Counted from the first letter of the stretch, positions 31,290 to 62,911 are shown. The stretch: 64,000 nt of DNA from Lachnospiraceae bacterium (GCA_050944855.1 JBMNRU010000004.1:22634-86633); one strand, 5' to 3'. The notes: generated by a model from the letters alone, not told the origin. Numbers and translations: made by a program.

Positions 31290-31462
31290 AAGTTCGTAGG
31301 AAAAAGCAGACGCTTACCGAAGGAGTAAAACTCTCAGGTGTCCTGATCTTGTCGGGATAAAGACTATGAATGGATGTGACTCTGGAGAAATTCGATTGAC
31401 TCGAATGCCGAAGGTGCAAACACGGATTACTGTGTGAATCTCTCAGGCAAAAGGACAGAGGA
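31290..31462 (+). promoter_or_regulatory. Tandem glycine riboswitch (two aptamers)
   Basis: Aptamer 2 is textbook: CTCTGGAGAA...GCCGAAGGTGCAA...CTCAGGCAAAAGGACAGAG. Aptamer 1 is a variant: GTAGGAAA...ACCGAAGGAGTAA..CTCAGG-[hairpin]-TAAAGAC, with P1 TCGTAG/CTATGA. It lies upstream of an alanine/glycine symporter. Confidence 0.85.
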
Positions 31463-31477
31463 TAGAAGAAATTTTCC

Positions 31478-61066: not shown

Positions 61067-61597
61067 GTTAAGCACCATCCTTATTTTTAGGCTTAATTAA
61101 AATGAAACCCTTATAAAATATAGTATAATTTCTACCACTATCCTTTGTCAATATCATCCGTTTATCTGCTCTTCTTTCACCGTTATCGGATATCTGCGAT
61201 ACAAAATATACCCCGCCGCGGCCGTCAGCACTTCCGCAATGGGTCTTCTGGTTGAAGAGTTTTTATATTCTCATAGATTTTTTCAAATTTTTTAACATCA
61301 CCCATACCTGCTCCCCATTATGAAAACTGTATAAACTTGAAATATATTATAACCTAAATAGCCTAAAACGTTAATAGAGCATATGAGATTCCAAGCAGCG
61401 AAACGAATCTCAGGAAGATATACGATTCCAAAAGCCTTGCTAATCTTAAAGCCGAGATTGAGAAATAGATACTTGTAAGGCCTGTTAAAAAAGTTGGAAC
61501 TGTGAGCCCATGCTCACGGCTCCATTACTATATCTTGTGTTTGTGGGGGCTCTATCGGCTCCAAAGCGTTAGGATATTCAGACAAATCGCGACAAAC

Positions 61598-61642
61598 AAG
61601 ACCCCCGAAAACACTGATATTTTCGGGGGTCTTGGTATTTTT
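61598..61642 (+). terminator. Strong terminator-like hairpin in the non-coding gap
   Basis: AAGACCCCCGAAAA-cactga-TTTTCGGGGGTCTT is a 14-bp perfect stem followed by GGTATTTTT. The T-run is better on the plus strand. No plus-strand gene precedes it. Confidence 0.55.
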
Positions 61643-61743
61643 GCAGTCTGATTATCTCTTGCAAAGTTCCAAACCTTTATTTCCCGGCATTTTCAAGGTA
61701 ATTGTTAGTTACCTGTCACTTACTCATAAACATTCATACTCAC

Positions 61744-62220
61744 TCATTTTATTTTATTCAGCTCATTCAAAATATGATTTATATCCGTCAAAACAATCCT
61801 AACCCCTCTTTTATTTAATCTAACCACCTTTCGCACGATACCATTTATTTCTGCTGATAATTTATCATTTATAGTAACCGGAACTGTATTGTTTTCAATC
61901 ATATACTGACAATCAATGTACTCTTCAGTCACCGGACAAAGATTCTGAATCAGAAAAGCTCTGTATTTTCCATTTACATATCCGAACCGTAGGCCATCAT
62001 ACTCCCTGTATCTCATTTTCTTTTTATCATACAACGCTTTATACTTTTCCGTTTTAGATGATATAGGAACCATCCAAAAATATCCGTCCATTTCAAAACA
62101 ATAGAAACAGGGTCTCCCATGCACTCCTGCTTCATCATCATCTTTATTCCCCATTAATCCACAATTAGGAAATCGTTTATAATATTCGTCCTTAATAAAA
62201 TAAAAATTACCTGTATTCAA
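61744..62220 (-). CDS. Type III toxin-antitoxin system toxin, ToxN/AbiQ/CptN family (endoribonuclease)
   Basis: NFYFIKDEYYKRF, RPCFYCFEMDGYFWMVPISSKTEKY and AFLIQNLCPVTEEYI follow the ToxN/AbiQ pattern (FY.I...Y...L, ...YL.PL.S.K, IN...MIP). The likely start is TTG 62220, 4 nt after AGGAGA; the track ATG 62238 lies in the terminator T-run. Confidence 0.8.
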   Translation of the reverse strand: MNTGNFYFIKDEYYKRFPNCGLMGNKDDDEAGVHGRPCFYCFEMDGYFWMVPISSKTEKYKALYDKKKMRYREYDGLRFGYVNGKYRAFLIQNLCPVTEEYIDCQYMIENNTVPVTINDKLSAEINGIVRKVVRLNKRGVRIVLTDINHILNELNKIK

Positions 62221-62235
62221 ATTGTCTCCTATGTA

Positions 62236-62264
62236 CAAAAGTGCCCCGCTAAACAGCGGAGCAC
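62236..62264 (-). terminator. Intrinsic terminator between the repeat RNA and the toxin gene
   Basis: On the minus strand, GTGCTCCGCT-gttt-AGCGGGGCAC is followed by TTTTGT, immediately 5' of the toxin RBS. Confidence 0.7.
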
Positions 62265-62358
62265 AAATATTTGTATCCCAGCCATTTATTAGTCGCTCGC
62301 TGGGTAGCGAAAAATATTTGTATCTGCACCTTTTCTATAAATGCCGATATGCAGTTCC
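62265..62358 (-). ncRNA. Candidate type III antitoxin RNA: two 47-nt units
   Basis: Unit 1 (62358-62312) is ggaacTGCAtatcggcatttatagaaaaggTGCAGATACAAATATTT. Unit 2 (62311-62265) is ttcgctaCCCAGCgagcgactaataaatgGCTGGGATACAAATATTT. They share an exact 13-nt 3' block and have positionally equivalent stems. Confidence 0.55.
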
Positions 62359-62398
62359 GGCAGAATAATAAGAGATTCATCTGAACTTCTTAATTTAT

Positions 62399-62404
62399 AT
62401 TATA
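62399..62404 (-). promoter_or_regulatory. Possible -10 box for the repeat RNA/toxin transcript
   Basis: TATAAT on the minus strand, about 40 nt upstream of unit 1. There is no good -35 (GTAGAT at 17 nt). Read-through from rpsI is an alternative. Confidence 0.35.
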
Positions 62405-62446
62405 CTCATTTTCAGATAAATATCTACTGGCATTTTATACAAAAGG

Positions 62447-62482
62447 TTGCAAAATCCCCAAAACATACAGGTTTTGGGGATT
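62447..62482 (-). terminator. Intrinsic terminator after rpsI
   Basis: On the minus strand, AATCCCCAAAAC-ctgtat-GTTTTGGGGATT is a 12-bp perfect stem followed by TTTGC. Confidence 0.75.
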
Positions 62483-62518
62483 AAAATGCATCGTTGATAT
62501 TTCTGTATTCTCTTTGAA

Positions 62519-62911
62519 TTATCGCTTGCTGAACTGCGGAGCACGACGAGCTGCTTTGAGACCATATTTCTTACGTTCTTTCATACGTGGATCACGTGTT
62601 AAGTATCCTGCTGCTTTTAATGTCGGTCTGTATTCGCCGTCTGCCTGAAGCAGTGCTCTTGCGATACCATGTCTGACAGCACCAGCCTGGCCTGTATATC
62701 CGCCGCCATGTACGTTTACTAATACATCAAATTTATCCAGTGTATCAGTTGCAACCAGTGGCTGACGAACGATTACTTTCAATGTATCCAATCCAAAATA
62801 ATCATCAATGTCTCTTTTATTAATTGTAATTTTACCTGTGCCGGGTACTAAATATACTCTTGCGATTGATTTTTTTCTTCTTCCTGTTCCGTAGAATTTT
62901 GCACTAGCCAA
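62519..62911 (-). CDS. rpsI: 30S ribosomal protein S9
   Basis: 130 aa. It starts with [12 protein letters not shown] and ends RRAPQFSKR. Confidence 0.98.

Follow-up and report, generated by a model that had tools for sequence, protein, structure and literature searches.

The minus strand of a 64,000-nucleotide (nt) stretch of Lachnospiraceae bacterium DNA (GCA_050944855.1 JBMNRU010000004.1:22634-86633; hereafter the window, with positions counted from its first letter) carries two 47-nt RNA units upstream of a gene for a CptN-family toxin. They had been proposed, from the sequence of the window, as a candidate type III antitoxin with non-identical units. By its sequence and arrangement, the region is the RNA antitoxin gene (CptI) of a CptIN module in which the near-identical repeats have been replaced by two unlike pseudoknots of the same shape, here called PK1 (in unit 1) and PK2 (in unit 2). 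Both units are structured and under purifying selection. We consider it fairly probable, on comparative grounds, that PK1 and PK2 are both working antitoxin monomers for one toxin, provided in equal amounts by one transcript.

Two units with a common 3' block and unlike stems

Unit 1 (U1; 62358..62312, minus strand, 47 nt, GGAACTGCATATCGGCATTTATAGAAAAGGTGCAGATACAAATATTT) and unit 2 (U2; 62311..62265, minus strand, 47 nt, TTCGCTACCCAGCGAGCGACTAATAAATGGCTGGGATACAAATATTT) are identical at 25/47 positions when aligned without gaps, the same value that the original prediction had reported. Outside the 13-nt block at their 3' ends (GATACAAATATTT), identity is 12/34, compared with the roughly 27% expected from local base composition. 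The block was said to be exact and shared, and the window does hold exactly two copies of it, 62324..62312 and 62277..62265, at a spacing of 47 nt. A search of the window for a third copy with at most two mismatches gave 7 matches against 3.6 expected, and the five extra ones are scattered and unrelated. The statement that there is no third unit also stands: Tandem Repeats Finder reports no array in the window, even at a minimum score of 30, and the canonical CptI model described below has one match there. When CptI repeats are taken to be tandem, nearly identical units of 40-48 nt in 1.9-3.4 copies, the 47-nt period and the two copies fit, whereas the identity of 25/47 is far from near-identity.

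Stem 2 is formed by CUGCA(U)/(G)UGCAG in U1 and by CCCAGC/GCUGGG in U2. A second stem crosses it in each unit (UGCCG/CGGCA in U1, UCGCU/AGCGA in U2), giving H-type pseudoknots with the order stem 1, loop 1, stem 2, stem 1', loop 2, stem 2' in both. The stems had been placed at the same offset in the two units; they do exist and their 3' arms are in register, ending directly before the block, but the 5' arms are offset by about 2 nt. PK1 also begins 4 nt upstream of the start originally given for U1. With 3 nt in loop 1 of PK1, a single nucleotide in that of PK2 and an A-rich loop 2 in each, both units have the very short loop 1 and long A-rich loop 2 of an H-type pseudoknot. PK1 and PK2 also have in common the closing C-G pair of stem 2 and the AUACA 3' tail, and the A-rich loop of PK1 ends in AAAAGG.

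The downstream gene encodes a CptN toxin

The toxin scored 169.2 bits against the NCBIfam CptIN equivalog NF047359 (cut-off 90), covering profile positions 1-150 of 150, and matched the crystal structure of E. rectale CptN (PDB 4RMO, chain A; E=2e-20). Searches of the toxin against Pfam and PADLOC gave zero matches. Aligned to 4RMO, the catalytic Ser-Ser/Thr-Arg triad is in place as S54-S55 (VPISSK) and R36 (GRPCFY). Every residue that is invariant among 36 homologues, R36 and S54 included, is held by the window toxin, as is the nearly invariant S55. An AGGAG ribosome-binding site (62230-62226) precedes the gene, and its start position is common to 32 orthologues. The weak TTG start is found in the window and 18 close orthologues, with ATG at the same position in deeper members of the clade; TTG may hold down translation of the toxin.

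Promoter, RNA units, Rho-independent terminator and toxin gene follow one another on one strand, as in described CptIN loci. This layout, together with membership of the toxin in the CptN family, identifies the locus as a chromosomal CptIN type III toxin-antitoxin module. The type III context assumed in the original prediction was therefore correct, with a CptN reading frame downstream and the promoter and terminator in the expected places.

The unlike pair is conserved and covaries among orthologues

Orthologous loci were collected by a toxin-alignment scan with one genome per species, from which the best 80 of roughly 500 CptN-family loci were taken, and 23 more came from viral contigs. The same ordered PK1-PK2 pair was present in 33/33 other loci in which the toxin is at least about 50% identical to that of the window and both units are readable. 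Toxin identity across these loci runs from 92% down to about 50%, and they come from Lachnospiraceae, Oscillospiraceae, Butyrivibrio and Synergistaceae assemblies. Each unit is followed by a linker with the core CAAAU(A/G)UU. Identical repeats, a PK2-PK2 array or a lone unit were seen in none of the 33. The pair-bearing loci form one exclusive clade in a neighbour-joining toxin tree, and a viral-contig locus of the same type (L081) lies just outside it. Identical repeats in the orthologues and an inactivated toxin in the window had been named beforehand as the outcome that would speak against a two-unit antitoxin; the orthologues instead carry the same unlike pair, and the toxin is intact.

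Covariation was measured in a MAFFT alignment of 31 distinct sequences over four stems with 22 pairs. Standard pairs fill 97.4% of cells, and 11/22 pairs have changes on both sides (62 cells). These values were reached by 0/500 shuffles, and sliding the 3' partners by 1-3 columns left 28-41% of cells paired with 0-3 compensatory pairs. All four helices contribute: PK1 stem 1 (97.4% paired, 2 compensatory pairs), PK1 stem 2 (99.5%, 3), PK2 stem 1 (92.3%, 2) and PK2 stem 2 (99.5%, 4). In PK1, for example, UGCCG/CGGCA becomes UGUCG/CGACA, and CUGCA/UGCAG becomes CUGUA/UACAG or GCGUA/UACGC; in PK2, CCCAG/CUGGG becomes CUCGA/UCGAG or CCCGG/CCGGG. RNAalifold, run without an imposed structure, recovers PK1 stem 1 and PK2 stem 2. 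An alignment of orthologous loci had been suggested as a check, and it supports both stems of both units.

Averaged over columns, identity is 0.888 in PK1 and 0.839 in PK2, compared with a third-codon-position identity of the toxin gene to the window of 0.64-0.76 in close relatives and 0.45-0.54 in distant ones. Covariation, together with conservation above that of third codon positions, shows that the units are real, structured and selected.

Concerted evolution of the linkers and loss of the first cut motif

The core of linker 1 is CAAAU in 27/31 sequences and is off by one base in the other 4. The two linkers change in concert: apart from a single exception among the clade loci, both have AAAUAUUU or both have AAAUGUUU. 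In deeper members the core at a further site 5' of PK1 (site 0) is likewise of the A or G type of the locus's own linkers, reading AAAUAUUU, GAAUGUUC or AAAUGUU in L031, L032, L035, L037 and L042. These five loci and L081 have a third copy of the linker motif, as in canonical '2.2-repeat' arrays, and the intact linker before PK1 suggests that PK1 began as a releasable unit. In the window subclade site 0 is CUUAYUAUUC, in which the U-rich tail is kept and CAAA is lost.

E. rectale CptI is cut at GA^AAG, with a cyclic phosphate on the last A (PMC4627078). By analogy, CptN would cut at A62319/A62318 in linker 1 and at A62272/A62271 in linker 2, and the predicted PK2 monomer is 62318..62272, 47 nt.

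RNAalifold also proposed a helix between linker 1 and linker 2 around PK2 (columns 60-66 and 107-113 of alignment A2). It had zero compensatory support and was rejected; the proposal arises because AAAUAUUU is self-complementary. That the linker core is self-complementary, whether it reads AAAUAUUU or AAAUGUUU, may simply follow from the sequence that the toxin recognises.

PK1 and PK2 compared with canonical CptI units

A covariance model of canonical CptI (R1) was built from 32 units of distant arrays, the toxins of which are about 40% identical to the window toxin; these units themselves show both stems. R1 matches PK2 with both linkers (62322..62265, 50.4 bits, E=1e-8) as its sole match in the window, where it should be noted that R1 gives one match per locus over the whole window and all loci, even for canonical two-unit arrays, which we attribute to the shared linker. 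PK2 has AUAAAUGG before stem 2, like the crystallised E. rectale RNA, and the stretch AUAAAUG of its loop 2 equals A29-G35 of that RNA, in which A29 and U30 are essential for antitoxicity (PMC4627078). PK1 is laid out as UGCCG-GAA-CUGCA-UAU-CGGCA-(A-rich loop ending AAAAGG)-UGCAG, and a canonical unit as GUCGC-UU-CUCGA-UAU-GCGAC-UCAUAAAAGG-UCGAG. By this layout, PK1 is clearly the same kind of object as a canonical CptI unit.

The distant CptN arrays (L041-L080, L082-L100) form a continuum from identical units (L043, L063, L093) to diverged pairs, and pairs have diverged independently in L082, L086-L092, L094 and L097. They have the linker core CAAAU, the stem and loop order and two units per array in common with the window, but keep three linker copies, and the window clade stands at the extreme of their range of divergence. 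Tandem Repeats Finder detects an array upstream of 37/97 sampled CptN genes, a sample biased towards relatives of the window toxin, and zero arrays in orthologues of the pair-bearing clade.

Two further patterns were seen among the distant loci. In about 20 of them, stem 1 is GUUGC/GCAAC in unit 1 and GUCGC/GCGAC in unit 2, and the loop 2 sequences differ; this compensatory, position-specific GUUGC/GUCGC difference is fixed in L041, L045, L048, L051, L055, L057, L058, L061, L062 and L065 and in L068-L071, L073, L074, L077 and L078. Three viral contigs (L101-L103) have a single CptI unit between two linkers, ~100 nt upstream of position 1501. Their toxin match covers residues 1-118 or 1-135 only, and their relatives L093 and L096 have two identical units.

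Under a pseudoknot-free folding model, the native pair has a mean of 3.7 expected inter-unit pairs, compared with 11.5 and 11.4 in synthetic PK1-PK1 and PK2-PK2 arrays, and it lies below both synthetic arrays in 27/31 loci, which are related to one another. At most this hints that a unit folds on its own more readily when the stems are unlike, and the hint is weakened by the existence of natural identical arrays with high predicted mispairing.

Organization of the module and its surroundings

On the minus strand, the module reads 5'->3' as promoter, 5' hairpin, U-rich tail, PK1, linker, PK2, linker, terminator, ribosome-binding site and cptN (Table 1).

Table 1. Features of the cptIN module in the window. 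S1 and S2, stems 1 and 2; L1 and L2, loops 1 and 2.
Feature	Position	Strand	Basis or remark
Promoter-like site, TAGATA-16 nt-TATAAT	62399..62426	-	10/12 matches
5'-terminal hairpin of the antitoxin transcript, UAAGAAGUUC-AGAU-GAAUCUCUUA	62369..62392	-	Predicted fold
U-rich 5' tail of unit 1 (UUAUUC), degenerate remnant of a first linker (site 0)	62363..62368	-	CAAA motif absent
PK1, H-type pseudoknot, body of unit 1	62324..62362	-	Covariation
Parts of PK1	S1 62362-62358 with 62346-62342; S2 62354-62349 with 62329-62324	-	L1 GAA; L2 A-rich, UUUAUAGAAAAG
Linker 1, AUACA-AAUAUUUU	62311..62323	-	Exact copy of linker 2 core
PK2, H-type pseudoknot, body of unit 2	62277..62310	-	Covariation and canonical CptI model
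Parts of PK2	S1 62310-62306 with 62297-62293; S2 62304-62299 with 62282-62277	-	L1 A62305; L2 CUAAUAAAUG
Linker 2, AUACA-AAUAUUU	62265..62276	-	Block copy; concerted change with linker 1
Rho-independent terminator, GUGCUCCGCU-GUUU-AGCGGGGCAC and UUUU	62237..62264	-	10 pairs, 7 G-C
cptN toxin gene, 158 amino acids, TTG start at 62220	61744..62220	-	NCBIfam NF047359, PDB 4RMO
Two-way terminator hairpin, downstream end of the module after cptN	61597..61634	.	15 pairs

From the position of the promoter-like site, transcription would start near A62391/62390. The -10 box and the upstream stretch GTATAAAATGCCAGTAGATATTT are kept among close orthologues. The 5' hairpin keeps its shape, as judged by eye, with quite different sequences in L001, L018, L021, L023, L024, L027 and L034, and several canonical arrays have similar hairpins 5' of the first linker. 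A hairpin is present at the terminator position in every orthologue read, with differing stem sequences. Similarity of the orthologous modules to the window stops at about 61650, giving a module span of about 61650-62500. The rplM-rpsI genes lie upstream of the module in the window and in nine close orthologues, and L008, L009 and L011 have the module beside other neighbours. A search of 61500-62600 against Rfam at permissive thresholds found nothing relevant and no CptI family match.

Several observations on the locus and its surroundings are recorded here. The sequence TTTTGTATAAAATGCCAGTAGATATTT (about 62420-62450, minus strand), which covers the -35 element and the bases before it, hardly varies among close orthologues despite differing upstream neighbourhoods and may act as an UP element or an operator. 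The toxin gene of L040 is split near codon 12 by a ~275-bp insertion (about 2237-2513) with the antitoxin region intact, and in L026, upstream of 2483, the antitoxin region has been swapped for unrelated DNA and the toxin match is gapped. Downstream of the module, 61243-61381 (139 nt) shares 83.6% identity with sequence that lies ~1.1 kb before cptIN in L015 and L016 (1266-1405). The only above-threshold Rfam match in the window is a glycine riboswitch aptamer at 31372-31468 on the plus strand (66.6 bits, compared with a gathering score of 32).

Discussion

The reading that we favour, in which both units work as antitoxin, draws on the structure of the E. rectale CptIN complex (4RMO), where CptI was solved as an H-type pseudoknot and two toxins are bridged by two RNAs (PMC4627078). 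Each E. rectale CptN has the 3' end of one RNA in its active site, and the 5' tail of the second RNA lies on a larger surface; the protein touches mainly the single-stranded 5' and 3' tails, and a single repeat neutralises the toxin (PMC4627078). In the window, one short transcript from the promoter to the terminator just before the toxin gene would supply both RNAs. CptN would recognise the shared linker that follows each pseudoknot, cut it at CA^AAU and remain on the products: one RNA would have its 3' end in the active site, the other would lay its U-rich 5' tail along the second surface, and this binding would inactivate the toxin. The stems would have drifted apart by compensatory changes while the linkers stayed unchanged. 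Since such a toxin reads mostly single-stranded tails and overall shape, the stems would be free to diverge and need only pair, and what stays alike in the two units is what the toxin would read: linker, tails and the C-G pair closing stem 2. With no cut site left on its 5' side in this subclade, PK1 probably keeps the 5' hairpin when it is released, and PK2 would be the only clean 47-nt monomer.

A transcript with two units matches the two-RNA complex of E. rectale CptIN. A toxin lying across the PK1-PK2 junction would already hold the PK1 3' end and the PK2 5' tail, which makes a mixed PK1-PK2 complex from a single transcript attractive, although we hold it only as a tentative possibility. 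It is also possible, if doubtful, that PK1 and PK2 are fixed halves of an asymmetric complex from one transcript and not interchangeable spares. One toxin would then sit on the PK1-PK2 junction and a second on the PK2 3' site, closing the ring on the PK1 5' tail, which would be uncut and capped by the hairpin, with exactly one PK1 and one PK2 per complex. Divergence of the stems would be favoured in this arrangement, as it would reduce mispairing between neighbouring units and leave no direct repeat for deletion by replication slippage.

Several results weigh against both units being working monomers. In the window subclade PK1 has no upstream CAAA motif, so it could not be released as a standard monomer. 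Searched alone with R1, PK1 gave no match, where R1 is biased against it by carrying stem 1 as plain sequence and expecting an upstream linker. Its loop 1 has 3 nt and its loop 2 is 2-3 nt longer than in canonical units; in E. rectale CptI, single-base changes in loop 2 abolish function (PMC4627078), so PK1 may bind the toxin differently. When single sequences were folded against shuffles, U1 gave z = -0.01 (not significant) and U2 z = -1.97 (borderline), and support for the pseudoknots comes from orthologue covariation and not from single-sequence folding. On the side of the toxin, the cut sites are placed by analogy with a CptN only about 35% identical to that of the window, and Asp81 and Ser85, which specify adenine in E. 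rectale CptN, are not conserved in the window toxin according to the 4RMO alignment.

The principal alternative takes PK2 as the sole antitoxin and PK1 as a conserved structured leader that supplies the upstream cut site of PK2, perhaps stabilising the 5' end or helping to recruit the toxin, without neutralising CptN. In the window subclade only PK2 is flanked by two CAAAU sites, only PK2 is matched by the canonical CptI model, one repeat is fully antitoxic in E. rectale, and PK1 has atypical loop lengths and lacks the first cut site. We nevertheless think this unlikely. PK1 is conserved at least as well as PK2 and keeps, like it, the A-rich loop (ending AAAAGG in PK1), the closing C-G pair and the AUACA tail; after a cut in linker 1, its 3' end would be the kind of product retained in the 4RMO active site. 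Moreover, the linker retained before PK1 in the deeper members and L081 argues that PK1 originated as a releasable unit, and its 5' flank follows the A or G type of the locus's own linkers. The related idea that only the shared block matters is right in part, as the block is a concertedly evolving linker and the E. rectale toxin mainly contacts the tails (PMC4627078), but the pseudoknot bodies are conserved too.

PK1 might alternatively be a cis-regulatory element, and not an antitoxin, that pairs with the terminator and sets read-through into the toxin gene, since the minimum-energy fold of the whole transcript pairs the 3' arm of PK1 stem 2 with the 3' side of the terminator. This is improbable: terminator stems vary widely while the PK1 arm stays GGUGCAG or GGUACAG, the alternative pairing is by eye not kept in, for example, L024 and L029, and covariation favours the pseudoknot stems. 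A decaying or randomly diverging repeat array beside a dying toxin gene, which the original prediction had listed among its readings, would account for the low identity of the units (25/47) and the zero signal from Tandem Repeats Finder. It is very improbable given a full-length toxin with the family-invariant residues, recurrence of the same two units in 33 other loci, compensatory changes in four of four stems and conservation of both units above toxin third codon positions; covariation and conservation together exclude simple decay. Least credible of all is a small protein antitoxin from a 43-codon open reading frame (62380..62249, minus strand), which starts with ATG and spans both units. 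Its start is lost in L001, early stops or frameshifts occur in L008, L011, L013, L018 and L021-L024, and substitutions follow base pairing, not codons, so that this candidate was rejected as contradicted by a frame broken in many orthologues. Of the readings offered originally, the heteromeric two-unit antitoxin fits best at the level of the gene, as two unlike monomers encoded in one transcript.

The closest known systems are CptIN of E. rectale (4RMO; Rao et al. 2015, PMC4627078) and the CptIN family (Blower et al. 2012, PMC3401426), which have the same toxin family, the same order of promoter, about 2 units of 45-47 nt, terminator and toxin, H-type pseudoknot units with an A-rich loop 2, and an A-rich cut motif within the linker. 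Described CptI arrays, however, are tandem, nearly identical repeats, and the CptIN papers and a 2016 review have them processed into identical monomers, whereas the window units are common only in the linker (12/34 elsewhere) and have unlike stems. The window also differs in the 3-nt loop 1 and longer loop 2 of PK1, in having a 5' hairpin in place of the first cut motif, and in being invisible to Tandem Repeats Finder, the tool used for such arrays. A literature search, which did not cover the original list of 33 loci (Blower 2012), found no description of unlike CptI units.

The view that type III antitoxins are arrays of near-identical repeats, from which the original prediction started, is dated for TenpI. 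A 2025 survey of TenpIN (Sci Rep, PMC12283969) described tenpI repeats that differ from each other by up to 35% and gave toxI and cptI repeats as nearly identical; it asked whether both units work, leaving the question of each unit's function unanswered. As here, TenpI can have two unlike units, each drawable as a pseudoknot with an A-rich stretch and missed by Tandem Repeats Finder, and raises the same question of whether each unit works. The toxin of the window is CptN and not a TenpN-family member, so the resemblance is in repeat behaviour only; unit variation is about 47% overall and about 65% outside the linker, and the TenpI paper does not test covariation across orthologues with the two units treated as distinct types tied to position (PMC12283969). 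Non-identical type III repeats are thus already known as a concept, which tempers the novelty of a heteromeric antitoxin. The new elements are an extreme divergence between the units, their conservation by position throughout a clade, with covariation in all four stems, and the missing first cut site. ToxIN of Pectobacterium atrosepticum, Bacillus thuringiensis and E. coli works on the same principle: its toxin is a ribonuclease that cleaves its own repeat-containing RNA precursor at an A-rich site, and the resulting pseudoknots trap the enzyme within a closed ring of protein and RNA. It differs in having 2.9-5.5 near-identical 34-36-nt repeats and a ring of three toxins and three RNAs, and the toxins are <15% identical to CptN.

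Type III antitoxins have been defined and searched for as arrays of near-identical repeats, and in this CptIN clade that hallmark fails although the system looks fully functional. Pair-bearing CptIN modules are common in gut Lachnospiraceae and their relatives. Pipelines based on repeats would miss such antitoxins and leave their toxins annotated as orphans. The two distinguishable units also act as natural labels, by which one could ask whether complexes are assembled from the RNAs of a single transcript or from pooled monomers, and whether a unit's place in the array makes a difference. The conserved pair suggests that the toxin depends on linker, tails and a pseudoknot shape in its antitoxin, not on a repeated sequence.
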